A program made the translations under genes and the position numbers. This document shows, piece after piece, positions 11,343-57,200 of a stretch of DNA of 64,000 bases (the stretch's first letter is position 1; every line of letters starts with the position of its first letter). Under the pieces are notes generated by a model. That model did not search any database. It had not been told where the DNA came from and saw only the letters and a list, made by a program, of their open reading frames with translations. Source of the stretch: an uncultured Prevotellaceae bacterium (lineage in GTDB: Bacteria; Bacteroidota; Bacteroidia; Bacteroidales; Bacteroidaceae); the NCBI GenBank assembly GCA_900543815.1, contig UQST01000005.1, positions 54,908-118,907 of the forward strand, given 5' to 3'.

Positions 11343-11699
11343 ATCGTATGCTCGGCATGAGCATTGTCTAACGGGTGCAAGTCCCAGGGAAAGGGCTATT
11401 TGCGAGTGTAAAGCAGTTATCTCATGTGCAGGATTCATTTTGCCTCCAGGGCGGGTATGCCGTACATCTCCACCGTCCAACCCAAGGCTGGACGGTCAGA
11501 GAATATATATTACTTTGCCAAGTAAGCAAGCTTCATCCACCGTCCAGCCTAGGGTTGGACGGTCAAGGGCAACTTCTTTCCTGATGTGAAGACACACAGG
11601 AAGTGCCGAAGAAGCCTACATCTCCCTGTTCACCAATCGGCTTCCCTTGTACAGCCTCGGAATCACAACCATCCGTTACTCTGTATTTACAGGGTGGTT

Positions 11700-14686
11700 G
11701 TTGCGCTATGTCCTCTTTCATCACCAAACCACAACCTCAAGGTGGTTCTCTGCGGATATAGTATGTTGCGTTATATCCTCTTTCATCACCAAACCACAAC
11801 CTCGGGATAGTAAGTCTTGCCGTCGGCATCGTTGCGTTATATCCTCTTTCATCACCAAACCACAACAGGTGCGTGTAATGCCCATGCCTTTGCCTGTTGC
11901 GTTATATCCTCTTTCATCACCAAACCACAACTAGGGCTGATAGGTTTTTGTGTGTGATTGAGTTGCGTTATATCTTCTTTCATCACCAAACCACAACCTT
12001 ATGACTGGTTTGATGGTTTATGGTACGTTGCGTTATATCTTCTTTCATCACCAAACCACAACCCTCCTGCTGCTACTAAGCCTAATCAAATGTTGCGTTA
12101 TATCTTCTTTCATCACCAAACCACAACAGTTACGGCAAATAATTGCTTTTGTTGTTGTTGCGTTATATCTTCTTTCATCACCAAACCACAACCTTTTTGC
12201 TTATTATAAAGCGTGGTTCGATGTTGCGTTATATCTTCTTTCATCACCAAACCACAACATGGCACTAAGGATAATTATTTGGGGATGGTTGCGTTATATC
12301 TTCTTTCATCACCAAACCACAACCTGCGTCTGATGTTCTTACCTTTATTAAGGTTGCGTTATATCTTCTTTCATCACCAAACCACAACCCAGCTGGGGAC
12401 ATAAAGTAACATTATACAGTTGCGTTATATCTTCTTTCATCACCAAACCACAACCAACAATGAAACAAGTAACATTAAAATCCAGTTGCGTTATATCTTC
12501 TTTCATCACCAAACCACAACCCGATTGACTCGCATAAGAGTCCTTTCTTGGTTGCGTTATATCTTCTTTCATCACCAAACCACAACCAATTCGTGCAGGA
12601 TTGTGTTTCTTTGGGGTTGCGTTATATCTTCTTTCATCACCAAACCACAACTTGGTGAGTGTGATATCGCCGCTAAGACTGGTTGCGTTATATCTTCTTT
12701 CATCACCAAACCACAACTCAAGGACGACCGCTTTCCACTGGATAACGTTGCGTTATATCTTCTTTCATCACCAAACCACAACTTTTTCATGCGTTTGTCC
12801 GCTCGTACTTGGTTGCGTTATATCTTCTTTCATCACCAAACCACAACCTTGAATGGGATTTGGTAAAGGACAATTAGTTGCGTTATATCTTCTTTCATCA
12901 CCAAACCACAACCTTTTTCCTCTGTTCCTCGTGTGCTTGGTTGTTGCGTTATATCTTCTTTCATCACCAAACCACAACAACTCGAGTATGAAAATCAGCG
13001 TAATGCAGTTGCGTTATATCTTCTTTCATCACCAAACCACAACGCAGGGCGGCTTCCCCGTCTCAAGACACCAGTTGCGTTATATCTTCTTTCATCACCA
13101 AACCACAACTTACCGCTTCGGATAGTGGCATAATGATGAGTTGCGTTATATCTTCTTTCATCACCAAACCACAACTCCAAGGTTCTGACTATGACGTATT
13201 TATAAGTTGCGTTATATCTTCTTTCATCACCAAACCACAACATGACCTTAGTTCTTTTTCTCGTTCAAATAGTTGCGTTATATCTTCTTTCATCACCAAA
13301 CCACAACCCGAAATCTCTTCTGATGTTGTGCGTGTATGTTGCGTTATATCTTCTTTCATCACCAAACCACAACTTTTGTATGATGCTTCACGGCCTGATA
13401 AAGGTTGCGTTATATCTTCTTTCATCACCAAACCACAACCTATAGCAAGAGAGCATAACGCTAATGCAGGTTGCGTTATATCTTCTTTCATCACCAAACC
13501 ACAACTTGATTTGAGTGCTTTGTGCCGTTCTAACAGTTGCGTTATATCTTCTTTCATCACCAAACCACAACATCGCCCGGCTGGTACATCTTTCTTTGTT
13601 GTTGCGTTATATCTTCTTTCATCACCAAACCACAACGTCAAGTCTCTGCAAATGAATCCATTGCTCGTTGCGTTATATCTTCTTTCATCACCAAACCACA
13701 ACTGCAAGATGCTGCTTTTCGTACTCGCGAACGTTGCGTTATATCTTCTTTCATCACCAAACCACAACCTGAGATGGAGGCTATACGTGCCAATATTGTT
13801 GCGTTATATCTTCTTTCATCACCAAACCACAACTTGTTACCATATTTGCGCAACACGGTATTTGTTGCGTTATATCTTCTTTCATCACCAAACCACAACT
13901 GGTTGGTGAATTGCTTACGCTTGGTGTTGTTGCGTTATATCTTCTTTCATCACCAAACCACAACTGCGCGCTACTCCTATGGCTGGTGTCGGTTGTTGCG
14001 TTATATCTTCTTTCATCACCAAACCACAACTCCAGTATGTCTAAATCTCGTTATTTCCGGTTGCGTTATATCTTCTTTCATCACCAAACCACAACGCGCT
14101 GCTCTTGCTCCTTTTGTTAAGTAGGTTGCGTTATATCTTCTTTCATCACCAAACCACAACTGCGTGATTATCATTCACCTATACAACAAGTTGCGTTATA
14201 TCTTCTTTCATCACCAAACCACAACTATGGTGCTTATCGTGGTATCCGTGGTTCTGTTGCGTTATATCTTCTTTCATCACCAAACCACAACTGTTACATT
14301 GTATTATTGCTATTGCTTGTGTTGCGTTATATCTTCTTTCATCACCAAACCACAACGCAGGGCGGCTTCCCCGTCTCAAGACATAAGTTGCGTTATATCT
14401 TCTTTCATCACCAAACCACAACCGGTATCGGAATGTAATTTAACATAGAAATGTTGCGTTATATCTTCTTTCATCACCAAACCACAACGCCCGCTTTGAT
14501 GGTTGCAAATATATACATGTTGCGTTATATCTTCTTTCATCACCAAACCACAACCCCTTGCAGATGGTTCTGCTCCTGCGACTGGTTGCGTTATATCTTC
14601 TTTCATCACCAAACCACAACTCCCCGAGAAGTTTTGAACGTGATTGGGTAGTTGCGTTATATCTTCTTTCATCACCAAACCACAAC
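11700..14686 (-). CRISPR. CRISPR array, 46 repeats of 36 nt with 45 spacers of 29-30 nt. Plus-strand repeat: GTTGCGTTATATCTTCTTTCATCACCAAACCACAAC. crRNA orientation (minus strand): GTTGTGGTTTGGTGATGAAAGAAGATATAACGCAAC
   Basis: Repeat starts counted by eye at 11700, 11765, 11831, 11896, 11962 ... 14585, 14651, period 65-66 nt. The four cas-distal repeats are degenerate (11700 copy GTTGCGCTATGTCC...; next three ATATCC instead of ATATCT). Lies directly downstream of cas2 on the same strand. Confidence 0.95.
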
Positions 14687-14770
14687 CTGTATTCCTTATG
14701 TGCTGTAATATTATACAGTTACAAGGCGTATATAGTACAGAAAATGGAATGGCGAGTTCCTTATCTATGG

Positions 14771-14778
14771 CAAAATTA
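14771..14778 (-). promoter_or_regulatory. Candidate leader promoter -7 element (TAATTTTG on the minus strand), immediately after the cas2 stop codon, about 85 nt upstream of the leader-proximal repeat
   Basis: Matches the Bacteroidetes TAnnTTTG -7 consensus; the -33 TTTG element is not clear. Confidence 0.3.
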
Positions 14779-15117
14779 CTAAAAAAACTCAAGTTGCACA
14801 GGCTTCTTTTGTACTTTTTGTTCTATCTCTCCCCATATATTGATGATGTTGGAGTATTGTTTGTCGGTTATCGTGATTATACTAAGTCTTCCCTTGCTGG
14901 GCATGAAGAGTTTTACCCGCTTGACGTGTACATCCCTTGATTCGAGTGAAGCACAGAAACGAATGTACACACTATATTGGTGCATTACGAATCCGTCGCG
15001 TTCAAGGCTCTTGCGGAAAACTGCATAATCATGTTTCTCCTTCTTGCTGACGGTTGGTAGGTCGAACATAACAACAATCCACATTATCTTATATGCATTG
15101 AGACGTGTTTCGCTCAT
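14779..15117 (-). CDS. cas2: CRISPR-associated endoribonuclease Cas2
   Basis: Track ORF 14779..15237 has an N-terminal extension overlapping cas1. Likely start at the internal ATG at 15117 (MSETRLNAYKIMWIVVMFDLPT..., about 112 aa, Cas2 size), overlapping the cas1 stop by 4 nt. Confidence 0.8.
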   Translation of the reverse strand: MSETRLNAYKIMWIVVMFDLPTVSKKEKHDYAVFRKSLERDGFVMHQYSVYIRFCASLESRDVHVKRVKLFMPSKGRLSIITITDKQYSNIINIWGEIEQKVQKKPVQLEFF

Positions 15118-16001
15118 TTGAGGGTAGGCAATGACAGTTTCTTCTGTTCCCCTGCATAGCATTTGGCAAGTGATGCCATGGTCATGGACAATCCTATTTG
15201 TAGCGGGCGGGTGACTTTGGGATAGTAAGTGTCGCACGATAGGCAGGATAACAGCTCAAACTTTGTATCTTTGTTCAGTTGAAGTTTGCCTTCTTCGCAG
15301 AGATTATAGACTATTTCATCCACGAAGGGGCGGAAAGGCTCCATCAGATCATCGGCAAGCGGAAAAGCGTTTCCTCTGTTGTGATGGAATATACCCAGGG
15401 AAGGAGTCAATCCTGCAGCCACTAACGCGCGGGCTGTTGCTGCACGCAGGATGGTGTAGCCGTAATTCAGAAGCGAGTTAATTCCGTCCTCATTGCGGTC
15501 TCTGAAGAAGTCTTTGCCAAACAGTTCTGTCCAATAAAGTTTTGCAGCTATCCCTTCTCGGTTGTCAACGTCTCCACTCTTTACGTTGGAGTATAGTGGC
15601 TTGAGGATATCTCCTCTGCCGTGCAACTTGTCTAATAATGCTGCTTGGTTGTTGATTTTGGATTCTATTATCTGTTTCCACAGTTGTTTCTTCTGCACTT
15701 CTCCTACGTTGATTTGATTGCGCAGAAATTCCCCTTGAAGGTTGTTGGCATCCAAATTCTGTAGCATGGCATGTGGCATGCCTTTCCTATCGCAGAGGAT
15801 TACAGCCACACCATTATCAACAAGTTCGTTGAGAAGTGGCATTGTCACACTGACCATTTGGTTCTCAATGATAATCATGCCAGTGTCCTCAATCGGGACT
15901 GTACGCACTTCGTCAGGAATGCCCTTGATAGTTATTACCAGTTGGGCATTCTTGAGCGAAAGTTGCGCAGGGGAGGTGAAGCAAAGTGTGCGTTTAAGCA
16001 T
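15114..16001 (-). CDS. cas1: CRISPR-associated endonuclease Cas1, type II
   Basis: 295 aa; sits between cas9 and cas2; acidic/His-containing C-terminal half (GIFHHNRGNAFPLADDLMEPFRP) typical of Cas1. Confidence 0.85.
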   Translation of the reverse strand: MLKRTLCFTSPAQLSLKNAQLVITIKGIPDEVRTVPIEDTGMIIIENQMVSVTMPLLNELVDNGVAVILCDRKGMPHAMLQNLDANNLQGEFLRNQINVGEVQKKQLWKQIIESKINNQAALLDKLHGRGDILKPLYSNVKSGDVDNREGIAAKLYWTELFGKDFFRDRNEDGINSLLNYGYTILRAATARALVAAGLTPSLGIFHHNRGNAFPLADDLMEPFRPFVDEIVYNLCEEGKLQLNKDTKFELLSCLSCDTYYPKVTRPLQIGLSMTMASLAKCYAGEQKKLSLPTLK

Positions 16002-16006
16002 ACTGA

Positions 16007-19000
16007 TTATTTTAGCTTGATTTCACCAATTGGTGTGATTTCAAAATCTACACCTTCTACTAAGGCCTTGAACTGGGTATGGTAGAGAAAAATAGATGCT
16101 CGTATCGGGTCTGTGTTCTTGTATGCTCCCTTTGTTATCTGTACGTCCTTGGCACTTCTAGCCTCACTGTGATGTCGTAGCGTGATTGTTCCATACCAAG
16201 TGCCTACAGGCAGGTAGCTTAGCCCTACTATCTTGTATAGACGTTTTGAGACGTCATTGACGTCTTTGAAGTCTATCTCCGTTGCACTGTTTTCGTACAA
16301 AAGAACCATCTGCCCAATCTTCAGCAAGTACTTGAGAGCGTAGCCCTTGGAACTTTTCTCTGGCACTATTGCAGGATAGTCATTTCTGTCGGTACTCTTC
16401 TTATAATAAGCCGCAGCATCAAGATTGTTCACAATCTCGTACTCTCGTTTTGTCTTACCTTTAACCATACCTTCGTAGATGGCGAGACAGTAGTTGCCGT
16501 CGTTAGCCACGTTGAATGTCTGCTTGTATTCTTTGGTGCTGGCATCCCGATGATGACGAATGTGAAGTGGAGTCTTAACAGATGGGGTATAGCAACGTAC
16601 CTTCTTAATCTCAATTCCTTTCTCTTCGTTCATGAATACGGGCTGGAGCACATTGTTCACAAAGGCAGCTTTCACTTTTTCTCTGACTACTTCATCCACA
16701 ATCTTATCTACATCGCTGAACTTGAAAGTGCAGTCAAGTGTCCTGCGAACCACATATTTTACGTCTCCATCCTGCTCTATGGCTCCATAGTAGGTATCCT
16801 GATGCAGGCTACCACGGGCACAATCTCCCTTGGCCTGTTTCTTACCATGGGGAGTGTCTATCATGCGGCAGGCTTTCTTGGGCATGTTGTCAGGAGTGTC
16901 GTGTACGACAAGCAACTCTTCGCTTATCTGCTTGAGGTCTTGGGTAAACGTGCTCCAGGGTTTGGGGAATATGGGCTTTTCGCCTTTGCCCTCTGTATAG
17001 TCATACATCTCATGATGATATCTGCTCATCTGGTTGAGCTCGTTCTTGCCGATGCAGGCTATGACTATAGCATCGATGCAATGGTGCGTGTGGCTGTCAC
17101 GTGACTTCTTTTCGTACTCTTCCTGTATCCCCCACATCTTGCGGAACTCTGCTGTGATGGGACCTTTGATGCTGAATACCTGTCGGCGTTCAGGGTGTAC
17201 CACATCGTGGAAGTAGCTCTTCAGATAGAGGGCAGCATACTTGGAGATGAGGCCGATGCCAGCTCCCTGACGCAGTGCAAAGCCTTCGGGCACTTCCTCC
17301 ATAGTGAAGCGCTGGTATTTGCCATGCCAGTAATCGCGCTCTATCTTCAGGCGGTTCTTCTTGCGTATGAGAGTGTCCTTGGTAGTTTTGTCCCAAACAC
17401 CTCGCGTGCTTATCTTGTCTATCTGTTTCGTGAGTTCTTCTACCTTCTTCTTCCAAGGCTCGATGCGAACAAGAATCTGTTCGTAATCAGGGAGCTTGGA
17501 AGGCAGTTGGGCTTTCTTGACAAAGCGGTTGTAATGGCTGTCACACAGGGTCATATTCTCCTGGGTGCTGTCACCTCCCACGCTGCGAGGTATGGTGTGC
17601 TCAATGTCAAAGGGAGTGCCTGCACCGACGAAATCAGTGATGCCGATATTCTTGCCTGTGTAAAGGCACACGTGGTCCTGTTCCTCCCACAATTGGAACT
17701 TGAGTATGTCGGTCTCTGTCGGCTCGATATCGCGGTTGGTCTGCTCTCTGTACAGCTTCTTCAGCTCCTCTGCATATTCCTTGTGCTTCTTGTCCAGTGT
17801 CCTCTGATGTTCGTTTATAGCGGCACGCATATTGGCATTGTTCAGTGAACGGGCATACTCGACGTGCACTTCTGTGTCGGGTCCAATCTTCCCTTCTTTG
17901 ATAAGGGTGTTCACTACCTTGCGTATTTCATGCAGAGAACGCATAGCCATGGGGTTGCGCACAGCATTGGTACGCGGGCTGCCCAGAAGGACAACTCCAT
18001 CATGGTTGGGCTTTGCATCCGGATAAGTCTCTATCATCGATGGGTGATAAAGCTTCTCCAACGCTTTCTCGCAGACGCCAAATTCCTCGTGCAGGAAATC
18101 CTTGATACAGAATTCGAGTGTGGAACGTTGGTCTCTCACTTCGTCAAGTGGTGCTGTTGCCATCTTGTTCACCTGGTCAAGGATTCGTTCACGCTTCTCT
18201 GGGTCGTTCCATATGTCGGCACCCACCAGTTTGGGAATGTTGCCCATAAACACAGCATGACTGTAGAGCATGCCCATCCTCAGGAAAGGAAGGACGTTGC
18301 GGATGGCCTTGAGCGAGAGTGATGAGAAGTTGTGGCTCAGGCGTATCTTGGCAAATTTCTCGGCATGTTCCTCGTCGAGTTGCAGGTGGTTGATGCCAAA
18401 CTCTTTCAGTTTGTCCTTGCTGTCGAAGAAATAGAGCACGTTCCAGATGTCGCATGCCATCTCTTCGGCAGTCTTTTGTCTGCCGTCCTTGCATTGGTTC
18501 ATGTCGAATGTCTCGGCTATTCCTTCCATCCAGTTGTCACCAAAGACGGTACGGAGCTGGGCTATCGTATGACATCCAGGCACACCTTGCGTCATGCGGA
18601 AGTTGAACTTGTATGGCTTTTTGCCAGCCTCCTTCGCATACTGGTAGTTGCCTTTTCCTGCTATCTTCTTGGCTATCTCTTCAAAGTCAAAGTTGGCCTT
18701 GCTCACTCGATAGAAGAGAGGCTTAATCTTGTACAACTCCACTTCGTTCAGGGGACGAGGTTCCATGTCATAAGGGTCTTCGATGCGCACGTTGTTGAGG
18801 AAGGACAACATGCGGAACTCCTCATACAGCGGATGAGAATCACTGCATCGTGGTTTGTTCTTCTCGAAGGTACATTTGCCCACGCTTTGACGTTGGCTTT
18901 TGAGCGGACGCTGGAAGTAAAGAGCGCGTTCCAGTTCATGCCTTATCTCTTGGCTTAATCCCTGTTTGTCGCAGATGGCATGGAACTCTTTCTTGTAATG

Positions 19001-19663
19001 CTCTTCGCGGTCGATGTATCTTGTTCGTATGCGCACTTTGTTTCCCTGTTGCGTGTATAGCATGTAGAAGTATTCGCCCAGGTATTCGCACCCGGCTTTC
19101 TCCATCTCTTGGCTCAACTCCGAAATGCCTTGCTTTACGGCTCCGCTTTCTTTTTCCTCATTGGCATCCAAACGATTGCTCATGAATCCTCTGCGCTGTG
19201 CCAGATGATAAAGGGCTCTTCCCAGAGTATAGCGGTCAGCCTGTTTGTTGAGGTCGAACTTTTCCGTCAGGCAGATGTGGCGACTGTGGTAGGGGTTGAT
19301 GCCTTTGTTCTCATCTGTGCGCTGCCACTGCATGAATTCATCCTTTCTGGGATAAATCTTGCGCGTATGCCACAGCTTCAGATCCTCTTCTGTCAATGCT
19401 GGACACAGATTGTGCTTGACAAGCACCTTGAGCACTTCTATCTTGCGCAGTCTGCGTCGGAAGTATTGGCGTCGCAATGCTCTGTGGGCAGTTCGATCTG
19501 CTGCCTTGCTGGACTCTATGCCCTTCTCTATCTTGACTCCTTCCTGAAAGATGAGTGTTCCTTTGTCCACCAATGTCTGTTCACCGCTTTCTTCGCGGTC
19601 AACAATGGCCCATCCGAGGCTGTTGGAGCCAGTATCAAGGCCTAAAACACGCTTTTTTGCCAT
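16007..19663 (-). CDS. cas9: Cas9, type II-C, compact at 1218 aa
   Basis: RuvC-I LGLDTGSNSLGWAIV (Asp at position 10); Arg-rich bridge helix RTAHRALRRQYFRRRLRK; RuvC-II VHVEYARS; HNH FDIEHTIPRSVGGDSTQENMTLCDSHYNRFVKK; RuvC-III HHCIDAIVIA. No csn2 or cas4 in the locus, hence II-C. Confidence 0.95.
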   Translation of the reverse strand: MAKKRVLGLDTGSNSLGWAIVDREESGEQTLVDKGTLIFQEGVKIEKGIESSKAADRTAHRALRRQYFRRRLRKIEVLKVLVKHNLCPALTEEDLKLWHTRKIYPRKDEFMQWQRTDENKGINPYHSRHICLTEKFDLNKQADRYTLGRALYHLAQRRGFMSNRLDANEEKESGAVKQGISELSQEMEKAGCEYLGEYFYMLYTQQGNKVRIRTRYIDREEHYKKEFHAICDKQGLSQEIRHELERALYFQRPLKSQRQSVGKCTFEKNKPRCSDSHPLYEEFRMLSFLNNVRIEDPYDMEPRPLNEVELYKIKPLFYRVSKANFDFEEIAKKIAGKGNYQYAKEAGKKPYKFNFRMTQGVPGCHTIAQLRTVFGDNWMEGIAETFDMNQCKDGRQKTAEEMACDIWNVLYFFDSKDKLKEFGINHLQLDEEHAEKFAKIRLSHNFSSLSLKAIRNVLPFLRMGMLYSHAVFMGNIPKLVGADIWNDPEKRERILDQVNKMATAPLDEVRDQRSTLEFCIKDFLHEEFGVCEKALEKLYHPSMIETYPDAKPNHDGVVLLGSPRTNAVRNPMAMRSLHEIRKVVNTLIKEGKIGPDTEVHVEYARSLNNANMRAAINEHQRTLDKKHKEYAEELKKLYREQTNRDIEPTETDILKFQLWEEQDHVCLYTGKNIGITDFVGAGTPFDIEHTIPRSVGGDSTQENMTLCDSHYNRFVKKAQLPSKLPDYEQILVRIEPWKKKVEELTKQIDKISTRGVWDKTTKDTLIRKKNRLKIERDYWHGKYQRFTMEEVPEGFALRQGAGIGLISKYAALYLKSYFHDVVHPERRQVFSIKGPITAEFRKMWGIQEEYEKKSRDSHTHHCIDAIVIACIGKNELNQMSRYHHEMYDYTEGKGEKPIFPKPWSTFTQDLKQISEELLVVHDTPDNMPKKACRMIDTPHGKKQAKGDCARGSLHQDTYYGAIEQDGDVKYVVRRTLDCTFKFSDVDKIVDEVVREKVKAAFVNNVLQPVFMNEEKGIEIKKVRCYTPSVKTPLHIRHHRDASTKEYKQTFNVANDGNYCLAIYEGMVKGKTKREYEIVNNLDAAAYYKKSTDRNDYPAIVPEKSSKGYALKYLLKIGQMVLLYENSATEIDFKDVNDVSKRLYKIVGLSYLPVGTWYGTITLRHHSEARSAKDVQITKGAYKNTDPIRASIFLYHTQFKALVEGVDFEITPIGEIKLK

Positions 19664-19673
19664 ATTCTTATGA

Positions 19674-19710
19674 TTTGTTTTGCTCGTTATTTATATATTC
19701 CTTATATTTG
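19674..19710 (+). promoter_or_regulatory. Candidate tracrRNA promoter: TTTG at 19674-19677 and 19679-19682 (-33-like), TATATTTG at 19703-19710 (-7)
   Basis: Bacteroidetes sigma-A consensus TTTG...TAnnTTTG with about 21-nt spacing; predicted TSS near 19717-19720. Confidence 0.5.
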
Positions 19711-19716
19711 CAACAT

Positions 19717-19796
19717 AAAATTCATCACCTTATCACAATAAGGCTATATGCCGAAGGATGAATTCCTAGCGCCTCTCTTCGGAGAGGCTTTTTTTG
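19717..19796 (+). ncRNA. tracrRNA: Predicted tracrRNA, about 80 nt, divergent from cas9
   Basis: Anti-repeat UUCAUCACCUUAUCACAAU (19721-19739) pairs with crRNA repeat 5'-GUUGUGGUUUGGUGAUGAA: 9 perfect bp, a 2-nt mismatch bulge, then 8 bp including two G·U pairs. Followed by a nexus-like CAAUAAGGCUAUAUGCC (compare CAAUAAGGCCG in the Neisseria tracrRNA), a small hairpin AGGAUGAAUUCCU, and terminator GCCUCUCUUCGGAGAGGC plus U7 (19771-19795). Confidence 0.65.
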
Positions 19797-20190
19797 TATC
19801 CTTGCCCGTCTGTGGGTTTGCTCGGACGATATGTGTGTTAAAGCCTGATGTTTCCATGCTACTGTCTTTGTTTGTTAGCGAAGTTATAACAAAAATGATG
19901 GTGAGCCAACAAAAAAGAGAAAAAGCTATGGATGAGCGAATGGAATCGTCTGTTTCCCGCACCATTTTGACCCAGATGCTTCATGAAAACCGCTTCTCGC
20001 ATCGTTTGTAAGTCTCAAAAGCCACCCTGAGAGCATACTTGCGTTCTTATGATAGTAGGTTTGATGGCCTTATCTGGGTACTGTGTCTTGATTGTTGCAG
20101 CCCCACACATCAATCCGGGAAGAAGATTGTGGGGCGGTGGGGATGGATATCGGGAGAAAAGGTGTTATCTTTGTCTTCGGACTTTAATGT

Positions 20191-20478
20191 ATGGATAGGA
20201 TAAGGAGGATAGTGATTCTATCGATGGAGATAAAGGATTGTCATCCGTGTGACAAGGTTCTCTGTACGGATGCTGAGTATGCCGAGATGGCGGGAGAACT
20301 GGCTACGATAATCTGGGAAGAGAAGCTGGGTGATATGGACGATGTGATGTTCATCATCTGGAACACCCTGCATGTCTTTCTTGCTACCTTATATATAAGG
20401 ATAGGCAAAAGGTTTTGGGCGTTTGGGCTAAAGTGTTGGCGTGGAAATCTGCTTGGTATAGCGTTCGATGGCCAATAG
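20191..20478 (+). CDS. Hypothetical small protein, 95 aa, in an otherwise ORF-free 950-bp block next to cas9/tracrRNA
   Basis: ATG-initiated ORF MDRIRRIVILSMEIKDCHPCDKVLCTDAEYAEMAGELATIIWEEKLGDMDDVMFIIWNTLHVFLATLYIRIGKRFWAFGLKCWRGNLLGIAFDGQ; no recognisable motif; coding status uncertain. Confidence 0.25.
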   Translation: MDRIRRIVILSMEIKDCHPCDKVLCTDAEYAEMAGELATIIWEEKLGDMDDVMFIIWNTLHVFLATLYIRIGKRFWAFGLKCWRGNLLGIAFDGQ

Positions 20479-20550
20479 CGATAGTCCTAAGGTTTATGGT
20501 CATTGGTAAACAGGCTTGGCTGAATGGCTTGGCCGAAGAAACATGCTGCT

Positions 20551-20596
20551 GAACGGAAACAAACGAGCCGAACCTCCTGATGGGGAAGTTCGGCTC
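20551..20596 (-). terminator. Intrinsic terminator downstream of ilvE
   Basis: Minus-strand hairpin GAGCCGAAC-(loop)-GUUCGGCUC followed by GUUUGUUUCC. Confidence 0.6.
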
Positions 20597-20632
20597 GATT
20601 GTGTATGATGGGCTGTGCAGCCCGTTTGACTC

Positions 20633-21655
20633 TTATTCGATGACCACGTGAGTCCATCCGTGGGTGTCGGGAAGTACACCGTACTGGATGTCGCGCAGCA
20701 TGTGGTAGAGCTTGGTACTGATGGGACCAGGCTGACCATCCTTGCTGATGACGTAGCTCTTCTTGTTCTCCAGGTCGTCGATACGCTCGATGGGGGAGAT
20801 GACAGCAGCGGTGCCGCATGCGCCGGCCTCTTCAAAGGTGGCCAACTCTTCCTCGGGTATCTGGCGACGCTCCACCTTGAGGCCAAGATCCATAGCCAGC
20901 TGCATCAGGCTCTTGTTGGTGATGCTGGGCAGGATAGAGGTGCTCTTGGGAGTCACATAGGTGTTGTCCTTGATGCCGAAGAAGTTGGCTGCTCCGCACT
21001 CGTCGATGTATTTCTTCTCCTTGGCATCCAGATAGAACTCGCAACTGTAGCCCAAGTCGTGTGCCATCTTGTTGGCCTTCAGGCTGGCTGCATAGTTGCC
21101 GCCCACCTTGTAGATACCGGTGCCCAAGGGGGCGCTGCGGTCATATTCGCGGATGATGACGTATGGGTTGGTGGCAAAACCACCCTTGAAATACGGTCCC
21201 ACTGGGGTAACGAAGATGAGGAAGAGGTATTCCTCAGAAGGGTGAACGCCTACCTGTGCGCTTGTACCTATGAGCAGTGGGCGCACGTAGAGGGTTGCTC
21301 CGCTCTCATAGGGCGGAATGAAGCGTTCGTTGAGGCGCACCACCTTCTCTACCATCTCGATGAACTTCTCGGTGGGAAGTTCGGGCATGAGGATTCCACG
21401 GCAGGTGCTCTGCAGGCGGGCAGCATTCTCGTCGGGACGGAACACACGTACCTTGCCGTCGGGACAGCGATATGCCTTGAGTCCCTCGAAGGCTTCCTGA
21501 CCGTAGTGAAGGCATGTGGCTGCCATGTGCAGGGGGATAGTCTCCTCGCTGCACACCTCTATTTCGCCCCACGCACCGTTGCGGTAGTAGCAACGCACGT
21601 TGTAATCAGTCTTCATGTAACCGAATGAAAGGTTACTCCAGTCTATTTCTTTCAT
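20633..21655 (-). CDS. ilvE: Branched-chain amino acid aminotransferase
   Basis: Track ORF runs to 21697; likely start at MKEIDWSNLSFGYMKTDY (21655); PLP fold class IV features (EGLKAYR, VGGNYAASL). Confidence 0.85.
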   Translation of the reverse strand: MKEIDWSNLSFGYMKTDYNVRCYYRNGAWGEIEVCSEETIPLHMAATCLHYGQEAFEGLKAYRCPDGKVRVFRPDENAARLQSTCRGILMPELPTEKFIEMVEKVVRLNERFIPPYESGATLYVRPLLIGTSAQVGVHPSEEYLFLIFVTPVGPYFKGGFATNPYVIIREYDRSAPLGTGIYKVGGNYAASLKANKMAHDLGYSCEFYLDAKEKKYIDECGAANFFGIKDNTYVTPKSTSILPSITNKSLMQLAMDLGLKVERRQIPEEELATFEEAGACGTAAVISPIERIDDLENKKSYVISKDGQPGPISTKLYHMLRDIQYGVLPDTHGWTHVVIE

Positions 21656-21721
21656 ATTGTAATGAGTTATAGTCCTTTTGTTACAAGCTGTAGGCAAAAT
21701 GTCGGCAGCGTTGGTGCAAAG

Positions 21722-54254: not shown

Positions 54255-57200
54255 ATGCGTATGACTAACCGTTTAAGCAAATGGAGCAGGCGTTCATCAC
54301 AAGTGGTGTGCCTGCTGGCAGCGTGCGGCCTGATGTATGCTTGTAAGGATGAGTTCACGCTGGACGATGAAAAGCCCAGTTGGCTCAACTCCAGCATCTA
54401 CGAGAGTCTGCAGAATCGCGGTAATTTCAAAACGTACTTGCGGCTTCTGTCTGACAAGGACGTCAATTCCGCCAATGCACGTCCTCTTTCGGAGGTGTTG
54501 AGCAGAACAGGCTCCAAGACTGTGTTCGTGGCTAATGACGAGGCTTGGCAGAAGTTCTTCGAGCACAATGCAACACTGCCGGAGGCAAACCCATGGCACT
54601 CAGCCACAAGTTATGAAAACCTGAGCCAGGCTCAGAAGAAGTTGCTCATACATACAAGTATGCTCAACAACTCAATCGTGATGGAGAACCTGGCCAGCAG
54701 TGAGGCTTCTGGTTCCAACTCTCCTGTTCGCGGTGAGTATATGCGCAGATACACCGACGTGGTGGTGACTGACTCTATTACCTATGTTCCTTCCAATCAG
54801 CTGCCCGTAAGCTACAGCCCCGTGGATAAGGACTACTGGTGGCGCTTCCGTGAGGAGAATGGTGGTAAGGGACTCTACATGGTGACCGATAACACTCCCT
54901 CTATGATGCTGCACTTCACCAGCGAGCATCTGACCAAGAACACAGTGACAGATGAGGACTTCGCTATCTTCATGGGTCAGGAACGCGTAACAAGCGACGT
55001 GCATATCTATGGCTCTAAGCTGATAGAGAAAGACGGTGTGTGTGAGAACGGTTATGTGAACGTGACTGATGCTCCCCTCTGCCCCGTAGCAAGTATGGCA
55101 GAAGTGATCCGCACCAATGGCAAGACCAACATCTTCAGCCACATGCTCGACCGCTACAGTGCACCTTTCTACGACAAGACGCTCTCTGAGTCTTACCACG
55201 ACTTGCACCAGGAGTTCGAGGATTCTATCTTTATTAAGAGATATGTGTCTGACAACGGTTATGGTCATAGAAAGTGGGCTTATGAGCCTGGTCCTCTGGG
55301 AACCACCGACAAGTACATGCCCTATAAGGACGATACCAGCAAGGATATTATTCCCAGCCTGAAGTTCGACCCCGCATGGAACGGCCTTTATGATGAGGTA
55401 CGCGTGGAGAAGGATATGGCTTCTATGTTCATCCCCAGCGATGAGGCACTCTGGAAGTACTTCACACAGGGTGGTGGTCTGCAGCTGATTGAGACCTATG
55501 GTGATCCCAATATGGTATATGAGTCAGTGGATGACCTCTACAAGAACATCGACAATATTCCTTTGGGTACTCTGCAGAGCCTTATCAACATCATCATGAT
55601 CCGCTCATTCGTGGGTAGTGTACCCAGCAAGATGACCAAGCTTCGTGATGATGCCCAGGAGCAGCTCTTCTATGCCGAGGACATCGAAAAGATTGATACC
55701 TGTCTGCTGGCCAGCAACGGTGCTGTATATATAATGAGTGATATCTACGGTCCTGCCGACTATACCTCTGTTACATCACCTGCCTACATCAGTAAGACAA
55801 ACAACATCATCAAGTGGGCTATCTATGACCAGACTTACATGGGTCTGAACTACTACGCCTACCTGAAGGCTATGCAGAGTGAGTTCACATTCTTCCTGCC
55901 TTCTGACTCTGCTCTTCTTTATTATTATGATCCCACCAGTATGAAGAGCCGCACACCTCGTGTGATGCAGTTGTCATACAAGAACAAGACATTCCCCATC
56001 GAGGCTCGTAACTACAACTACTATGGTCTCTACAACTCTACTGCAGACAACCCCGTAGGTACTATTGGCCGTGCTATTACAGGTCAGGGTGGTACCGTGC
56101 AGCAGGGTGAGATTACCAACCGTCTGAAGGATATTCTGGAGAGCCACACCATCGTGCACGACGGAACCAATCCTATCGATGGTGAGGACGAGTACTTCCT
56201 CTCCAAGAACGGTAACGCCATCAAGGTGGTTCGCGATGAGAACGGTCATGTAATCAAGGCTATGGGTGGCTTCCAGCTGGAGAATCAGCGTCAGCATGTC
56301 GATACAGAGACTATCGGTGTGACCGAGTGTGATGTGACAAAGCCTTTCGAGGGTCTGAAGAACGGACAGACATACGTGATGGACTCTCCCCTGGTGCCCA
56401 CATTCCGTAGTGTATATAGTATCCTGACCAACGATGATGACCAGAACAGATGGGACGAAGAGGCTTGGGCGAACAACCCCTATGCTGAGTTCTACTACCT
56501 CTGTCAGGCTGATGCCTATGATGACATCATCAAGGGTTGCGGTCTGGTAGATGAGCGCTGGTCAAGCAGCGAGCAGAAGTCTGCTATGAAGAAGTTCCAC
56601 GTATTTGTCAACGACAACGGTCCTGACTACAACGTGCAGTTCTTCAACAACTACCGTTATACTATTTTCGTTCCTACCAACGACGCTGTGCGTGCTGCCA
56701 TTGCTGCCGGTCTGCCCACATGGGAGCAGATTGAGGAGGACTACAAGGCTCACCGCAAGAAGGAGTGGGATCCCGAAACCAACGACTGGAAGCAGAGCCC
56801 CGACTCACGTCCAGACTCTATCGTGTATGAATATACTGACTCTCTGGAGACCACAGAGGACAGCTTGCGTATCGCTACAAAGATCACTTATCTGACCAAC
56901 TTCATCCGTTATCACTTCGCCGACAACTCTGTGTTTGCCGACAAGTCTCCTTTGGCTGACAATGAGATGGTGACATCAAGCTTCGATAGCGAGCTCGGAC
57001 TGTTCTGCAAGATACATGTGGATCGCATCCCCAACGGTGATGAGACTGTTCTGCGTGTATGTGACGACCAGACTTACAAGGTGAACCCCAACCAGAAGAT
57101 GGAGATAGTGGGCGAGAAGAACGTGATTGCACGTGATATGGCTTGCTCTAAGCGCCCTGTGGGTGTCGTGATGACCGGTATCAGCCTGGATGCTTCCAGT

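Follow-up and report, generated by a model that had tools for sequence, protein, structure and literature searches.

The segment at positions 19674-19796 of the 64-kb window (the whole stretch of DNA analysed here, 64,000 nt of contig UQST01000005.1 from an uncultured Prevotellaceae bacterium) is, with little room for doubt, the tracrRNA (trans-activating CRISPR RNA) gene of a type II-C CRISPR-Cas9 system, carried by a Prevotella-like member of the Bacteroidales. An initial annotation made from the letters alone had proposed a tracrRNA at this place, and that proposal holds almost to the base, supported by position, co-variation and parts that are conserved across 15 distinct relatives. The element lies next to cas9 and outside the array, its anti-repeat has been kept by selection, and its polarity agrees with that of a nexus, 3' hairpins and a terminator. 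Established in silico are the pairing with the CRISPR repeat, the co-evolution with it, the conservation of promoter box, nexus, hairpins and terminator, and the position in the locus. The predicted parts are the following.

19679-19682, plus strand: -33-like TTTG, 20 nt upstream of the -7 box
19703-19710, plus strand: -7 box TATATTTG, of Bacteroidetes type (consensus TAnnTTTG), read from the sequence
19715-19795, plus strand: predicted tracrRNA transcript of ~80 nt, its 5' end inferred from the -7 box (±3 nt), its 3' end in the U-tract
19721-19739, plus strand: anti-repeat TTCATCACCTTATCACAAT, 19 nt (DNA TTCATCACC-TT-ATCACAAT, RNA UUCAUCACC-UU-AUCACAAU)
19736-19756, plus strand: invariant core CAAUAAGGCUAUAUGCCGAAG, which contains the nexus
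19740-19752, plus strand: nexus, AA followed by the hairpin GGC-UAUAU-GCC (hairpin 19742-19752)
19755-19767, plus strand: hairpin 2, AGGATGAATTCCT, folding as AGGA-UGAAU-UCCU and present in the RNAalifold consensus
19771-19795, plus strand: intrinsic terminator, GCCUCUC-UUCG-GAGAGGC (19771-19788) followed by U7 (19789-19795), from a pattern and terminator scan

Repeat pairing and promoter

Both RNAduplex and RNAcofold pair the anti-repeat with bases 1-19 of the minus-strand repeat GUUGUGGUUUGGUGAUGAA, forming 17 bp over 19 nt with a duplex energy of -24.2 kcal/mol for repeat plus anti-repeat. Repeat bases 1-8 pair with AUCACAAU (8 bp, including the wobbles G1·U and G7·U), bases 9-10 (UU) stand opposite UU in a 2x2 mismatch, and bases 11-19 (GGUGAUGAA) form 9 perfect bp with UUCAUCACC, which is the very geometry that had been annotated initially (9 bp, a 2-nt mismatch, then 8 bp with two G·U pairs). 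In a co-fold of the repeat with the whole RNA (19717-19796, 80 nt; -45.9 kcal/mol), the anti-repeat is engaged and the three 3' hairpins are formed. No extra pairing was found between the tracrRNA 5' end and the repeat 3' half, where A·A mismatches follow the 9-bp stem; among relatives, this unpaired 3' half shows a conserved AGAUA/A-rich/CAAC pattern.

When pairing energy with the repeat was scanned in 30-nt windows over both strands, excluding the array (n=60,740), the cas9-proximal site ranked second. Complementarity this good occurs about once per 60 kb of single-strand sequence, and the chance that it would land within ~150 nt of cas9 is therefore below 1%; on position, context and conservation, the element is far beyond chance. 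The opposite, plus-strand orientation of the repeat was rejected, its best sites being all coding and none of them near cas genes, while the window-wide scan returned many GC-rich chance duplexes in both orientations.

The distance from the cas9 start codon (19661-19663) to the anti-repeat, which lies on the opposite strand, is 57 nt, and the array is 5 kb away. The initially annotated distance of 54 nt leads to 19718, near the likely transcript start. Directly 3' of the anti-repeat stands CAATAAGGCTATATGCC. The -7 box had also been recognized from the start; counting both strands, the window has only 34 copies of its TAnnTTTG form, and this form is conserved in the relatives. Promoters in Bacteroidetes reportedly follow a -33/-7 consensus, by which the tracrRNA should begin a few nt past the box, at about 19714-19718, placing the anti-repeat 3-7 nt from its 5' end. 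As for the -33-like element, a TTTG does exist where it was first placed (19674-19677), but 25 nt ahead of the -7 box it is 5 nt too far, and the copy at 19679-19682 is the better one.

Conservation in related loci and likeness to known systems

The relatives used for comparison are the matches listed from genomes, metagenomes and contigs found by protein search. Genomes yielded only two, L001 (a Paludibacteraceae metagenome-assembled genome (MAG), Cas9 54% identical) and L002 (a Bacteroidetes MAG, 45%), and metagenomes yielded L003-L013 (Cas9 60-98% identical). L014-L023 are contigs with Cas9 homologues from the protein search, whose source names include Prevotella sp. oral taxon 376 (L014, the P0109 locus) and a Bacteroidaceae MAG. 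In all 15 distinct related loci with a cas9 5' flank (Cas9 45-98% identical to that of the window), the element is found at the same place and in the same orientation, divergent from cas9, and the core CAAUAAGGCUAUAUGCCGAAG is invariant in all of them. The TAnnTTTG box lies 9-14 nt upstream of a 20-nt anti-repeat in 14 of the 15 (28 nt in L002), within bases that otherwise vary, and a TTTG at 19-20 nt spacing from the -7 box was tabulated in 10 of the 15, including the window's clade.

In loci with both array and element, the anti-repeat changes along with the locus's own repeat, as seen in the following segments.

Window: repeat GGUGAUGAA, anti-repeat UUCAUCACC
L018: repeat GAUGAUGAA, anti-repeat UUCAUCAUC
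L001: repeat GAUGUAGAUU, anti-repeat AAUCUACAUC
L009: repeat GAUGUAGAAA, anti-repeat UUUCUACAUC
L014: repeat GUUGCGG, anti-repeat UCGCAAU
L022: repeat GUUGCGG, anti-repeat CCGCAAU

This was quantified on 10 loci and one published pair, with 20 nt of repeat linked through GAAA to 20 nt of anti-repeat in each case. Standard pairs fill 88% of the cells, changes on both sides are seen in 7 of the 20 base pairs, and the covariation score of 0.220 compares with 0.095 ± 0.019 in shuffles, not one of 500 being as high. Sliding the partner by 1-3 columns lowers the paired cells to 29-57%, and the mean duplex energy is -23.4 kcal/mol for cognate against -16.8 kcal/mol for non-cognate partners. The 2-nt bulge of the initial annotation is present in the window but is not a feature of the family: five loci (L012, L016, L020, L021 and L023) have AA at this position and pair fully. 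Their Cas9 proteins are 63-66% identical to that of the window (~70% over a partial match for L012), and the bulge is apparently dispensable in this Cas9 family.

Downstream of the anti-repeat, the RNAalifold consensus of 14 sequences contains the nexus hairpin, hairpin 2 and the terminator hairpin. The nexus is invariant in 14 of 14 aligned relatives (the Ghe guide RNA discussed below included), and its pairing is uninformative for that reason. The small hairpin and the U7 terminator, both already in the initial annotation, do co-vary: the hairpin 2 pair at columns 23/31 is A-U in seven sequences and U-A in five, with a variable loop, and several pairs of the terminator stem are changed on both sides. 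Hairpin 2 is missing in L001. A related locus on a contig classified as "viral" in IMG/VR (L024/L029, IMGVR_UViG_3300035644_000148, 26.6 kb) carries a complete cas9-cas1 locus of the same family together with a tracrRNA. It was rejected as a phage-borne tracrRNA or single-guide RNA (sgRNA), given that the contig holds the whole cas9-cas1 locus, and its origin may lie in host DNA flanking a prophage, in faulty binning or in a mobile element that carries the system. Four further viral-contig matches to a shorter, 16-nt nexus pattern had no anti-repeat context and were set aside as chance. In L030, another cas9 relative, a pattern search gave neither a tracrRNA-like element nor a repeat array.

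The nearest described relative of the element is a guide RNA that has already been used in vitro, that of the 'Ghe' Cas9 (ortholog 64, clade IX, 1525 aa; Gasiunas et al. 2020, Nat Commun 11:5512; PMC7606464, Supplementary Data), which comes from an Elkhorn Slough microbial-mat metagenome. A full-text search for the core sequence returned no paper with a main-text occurrence; the sequence turned up only in this supplementary table. The Ghe repeat (GUUGUGGUUUGAUGUAAAUUC..., starting GUUGUGGUUUGAUGUAA...) is accompanied by a tracrRNA that reads ...UUACAUCUUAUCACAAUAAGGCUAUAUGCCGAAGGAUGUAAAUCCUAUACUCCCGCUUCGGUGGGAG..., including ...UUACAUCUUAUCACAAUAAGGCUAUAUGCCGAAGGAUGUAAAUCCUAU..., and then a terminator hairpin. 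In the sgRNA, 16 nt of repeat and the anti-repeat are linked by GAAA (...CAUCUUAUCACAAUAAGGCUAUAUGCCGAAGGAUGUAAAUCCUAU...), and NARWAC was reported as its protospacer-adjacent motif (PAM); the study made sgRNAs in this manner for all of its orthologs and screened them cell-free for their PAM and guide-RNA requirements (PMC7606464). Ghe and the window agree in the lower stem, in the UU/UU mismatch, in a nexus core of 21 identical nt, in where hairpin 2 is placed and in the overall plan. They differ in the upper stem (UUACAUC in Ghe, UUCAUCACC in the window), in hairpin 2, which has a GUAA tetraloop in Ghe, and in Cas9, the Ghe protein being much larger, with large insertions, and ~31% identical over the N-terminal 390 residues available. 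Since the Ghe sgRNA with only 16 nt of repeat has a reported PAM, a short duplex is sufficient. The guide modules being nearly the same, the class is therefore not new, and it has served as a working guide, also with a short duplex.

The system of Neisseria meningitidis (Nme1/Nme2) resembles that of the window in its cas9-cas1-cas2-array layout, a tracrRNA next to cas9, a repeat starting GUUGU... and a Cas1 of the NMENI class. The likeness to Neisseria that had been noticed initially in the nexus (ACAAUAAGGCCGUC) is borne out: the Nme2 tracrRNA reads ...GUUGCUACAAUAAGGCCGUC... and has the 10 nt ACAAUAAGGC, which run from the last bases of the anti-repeat into the nexus, in common with the window. 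However, Nme has a longer anti-repeat (~24 nt or more) whose internal loop differs, and its nexus stem-loop is long. Nme crRNAs (CRISPR RNAs) start at promoters that lie within the repeats, and array and cas operon are transcribed in opposite directions (Chylinski et al. 2013), whereas the conserved leader promoter of the window points the same way as the cas genes. The two Cas9 proteins are distantly related, with PDB matches of 1e-31 to 1e-38 over the HNH/RuvC part. The tracrRNA of Streptococcus pyogenes has the same order of modules (anti-repeat, AAGGCU-type nexus with a 3-bp hairpin, 3' hairpins and terminator) and the role proposed for the window RNA, repeat pairing and Cas9 loading. That system differs in being type II-A with csn2, and in having a longer anti-repeat and a sigma-70 promoter instead of the Bacteroidetes TAnnTTTG.

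Locus, array and crRNA polarity

The genes cas9, cas1 and cas2 are contiguous on the minus strand (19663-14779) and are followed by the leader and the array.

16007-19663, minus strand: cas9, 1218 aa (TIGR01865, 448 bits), divergent from the tracrRNA gene
15114-16001, minus strand: cas1, type II, NMENI class (TIGR03639, 289 bits)
14779-15120, minus strand: cas2 (TIGR01573, 69 bits)
14687-14778, minus strand: CRISPR leader, 92 nt, with TAATTTTG at 14778-14771 directly past the cas2 stop codon
11634-14686, minus strand: CRISPR array, 46 repeats of 36 nt (GTTGTGGTTTGGTGATGAAAGAAGATATAACGCAAC) with spacers of 29-30 nt

Neither csn2 nor cas4 nor any other cas gene was found at the locus, which consists of cas9-cas1-cas2 and the array; with the tracrRNA gene, this gene content makes the system type II-C. 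The gene lists of the relatives show the same trio. The closest solved structures to the window Cas9 are Cas9 chains, and D10, H689, N712, H860/H861 and D864, which we take to be the RuvC and HNH catalytic positions, are among the invariant columns of an 8-sequence alignment.

Within the array, the 42 cas2-proximal repeats are exact copies, and the four at the far end (~11.70-11.95 kb) are degenerate, three by one substitution and the last by several; beyond them lies a very degenerate terminal copy (~11634-11669). The leader box TAATTTTG is likely the pre-crRNA promoter, as predicted from its sequence and conservation: the window, like 15 of the 16 array-bearing relatives checked (L009 being the exception), has a TAnnTTTG that starts 90-92 nt ahead of the first repeat, and the repeat itself contains none. 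The crRNAs are assigned to the minus strand, with GUUGUGG... at the repeat 5' end, because three separate lines agree, among them the degenerate distal repeats and the conserved leader promoter; this is the strand that the anti-repeat requires and the one deduced in the initial annotation.

Several side observations concern the leader and the spacers. The length of the leader is fixed at 90-92 nt and it has conserved blocks, such as ccacttcttat and acaccata(t/g)ag just ahead of the first repeat, which are kept across Cas9 proteins only 60-70% identical (window, L003-L023) and may be spacer-integration signals or leader RNA structure. Two spacers 1.3 kb apart (14357-14386 and 13044-13073, minus strand) are identical at 27 of 30 bases (ttatgtcttgagacggggaagccgccctgc and tggtgtcttgagacggggaagccgccctgc), the differences being confined to the first three positions, a pattern suggestive of more than one acquisition from a single target in variant forms. 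The spacer in third place from the leader side (atgtatatatttgcaaccatcaaagcgggc, 14489-14518, minus strand) has 12 nt, TATATTTGCAAC, in common with the tracrRNA promoter region (19703-19714). Self-targeting would need a longer match; the likeliest reason is that a Bacteroidetes -7 promoter box was present in the protospacer as well.

On its other side, the tracrRNA gene is separated from a class IV aminotransferase gene (20633-21697, minus strand), which is not a cas gene, by ~835 bp (19797-20632) without a convincing gene; the two small open reading frames (ORFs) in this interval (87 and 95 aa) had no Pfam match. The bases just past the terminator are common to the window, L003, L004 and L006, and different in L005. 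How cas9 itself would be transcribed touches on the same interval. No TAnnTTTG box on the cas9 strand was found within 1 kb upstream of the window cas9 (19664-20700, minus strand), and just 16 nt separate the cas9 start codon from the -33 element of the tracrRNA promoter. A cas9-strand box does occur in some relatives (L011, L014, L016, L020 and L023 were compared), just past the tracrRNA terminator and 148-246 nt from the ATG, and there the cas9 mRNA would run antisense through the entire tracrRNA gene.

Alternative explanations and proposed function

A number of observations weigh against the identification of the element as a tracrRNA gene. The anti-repeat covers only 19 of the 36 repeat bases and is interrupted, both ends of the RNA are predictions, and the lowest-energy fold of the free RNA ties up the 5' half of the anti-repeat. 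Prevotella ruminicola has been counted among the loci with 'weak' anti-repeats (Chylinski et al. 2013), a score that a short, start-limited anti-repeat like that of the window would explain. Rfam (release 15) returned no family match for the whole window at gathering thresholds and, at E <= 10 in 19600-19900, only chance-level, terminator-driven hits; the non-match does not bear on function, because the curated models do not cover the tracrRNA class seen here. Finally, pairing energy alone is not unique, a site at 56536-56555 (minus strand, CUCAUCUACCAGACCGCAAC) being 3.4 kcal/mol better. On energy, therefore, the initial statement that the window holds no better anti-repeat does not stand, and it holds on every other criterion. 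That this distant site is the true anti-repeat and the cas9-adjacent element incidental is next to inconceivable: it is the best in the window (-27.6 against -24.2 kcal/mol by RNAduplex) and pairs more strongly with the repeat 5' end, but it lies antisense inside a 1024-aa fasciclin-domain ORF, 37 kb from cas9, and is followed by no AAGGC nexus, 3' hairpins or U-tract, whereas in every relative the cas9-proximal element is conserved and changes along with the repeat.

Scarcely more credible is the view that the element is a solitary repeat in decay, left over from an array or from the evolution of tracrRNAs and by now neither transcribed nor used. An origin of tracrRNAs from degenerate repeats has been proposed (Chylinski et al. 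2013), and a match limited to the repeat 5' half would fit such an origin. Yet promoter box, nexus, hairpin and terminator would not persist in a remnant of this kind down to 45% Cas9 identity, nor would the remnant change in step with the repeat of each locus, and the system looks active, with 42 identical repeats and presumed RuvC/HNH catalytic columns that are invariant among relatives. A different kind of doubt concerns processing only and leaves the identity of the element unchanged: the tracrRNA may be real and the crRNA route non-classical, with promoters inside the repeats or other nucleases trimming the 3' end, which we regard as possible though rather unlikely. With 17 bp in two blocks the duplex is short, and it extends no further than the start of the tracrRNA, the unpaired repeat 3' half is conserved in pattern, and repeat-encoded promoters have been reported in Neisseria and Campylobacter and proposed in Flavobacterium, all II-C systems (PMC10309648). 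Against this, no TAnnTTTG occurs inside the repeat, and its fixed position before the first repeat argues for a leader promoter, findings that favour the classical RNase III route.

With the element taken as a tracrRNA gene, an RNA of ~80 nt would be made from the plus strand, starting a few nt past TATATTTG and ending at the U7 terminator, while the pre-crRNA would be made from the minus strand, from the conserved promoter at the cas2-proximal end of the leader. The 19-nt anti-repeat would pair with the first 19 nt of each pre-crRNA repeat. RNase III cleavage at the duplex and trimming are assumed, because the duplex is limited to the repeat 5' half and by the transcription start. The lower stem GUUGUGGU:AUCACAAU would adjoin the spacer and be continued on the tracrRNA by the nexus hairpin, the second hairpin and the terminator hairpin; Cas9 would bind this scaffold and find its DNA targets through the spacer. 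That the window RNA would bind Cas9 and serve crRNA maturation and cleavage is supported only indirectly, by the use of a near-identical guide module as the Ghe sgRNA with its reported PAM.

The fold of the free RNA raises a separate question. Folded alone, 19715-19796 has an energy of -23.2 kcal/mol (z = -3.2 relative to shuffles), and in the window's clade the anti-repeat 5' half AAUUCAUC (19719-19726) is perfectly complementary to the hairpin 2 strand GAUGAAUU (19758-19765), which mimics the repeat. The two are paired in the lowest-energy fold, and a fold of this type was noted for the window and also for L008, L016, L018, L021 and L023. The Ghe tracrRNA, which has diverged independently, has an equivalent pair made of different bases (UUACAUC:GAUGUAA). 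In L009, L014, L022 and L024 the fold is another one, a 5' hairpin UAAGAU...AUCUUA that covers the anti-repeat in its middle part, and L022 and L014 differ in it by a G-C/A-U exchange. That the free tracrRNA is self-masked is a doubtful proposition, coincidence being the alternative. If masking were selected, the lower-stem part AUCACAAU would be left as a free toehold and only the true repeat would open the RNA, a built-in guard by which pairing to cellular RNAs is limited. Combined with the start-limited 19-nt anti-repeat, this would amount to a distinct control of crRNA:tracrRNA assembly.

The element is an expected and unsurprising component of a type II-C system, in which a tracrRNA upstream of cas9 is the rule, and no concept is changed by it. 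With repeat and tracrRNA in hand, the parts list of the system is complete and an sgRNA could be designed directly, for example GUUGUGGUUUGGUGAU-GAAA-AUCACCUUAUCACAAUAAGGC..., which gives the element practical value to those who want to employ this abundant Cas9 family. Gut and rumen metagenomes very commonly contain the Cas9 family concerned, with 529 members in the 90%-identity cluster of the window protein alone, and for Prevotella-type loci scored as 'weak' the implication is that they possess a genuine anti-repeat, short and co-evolving with the repeat.

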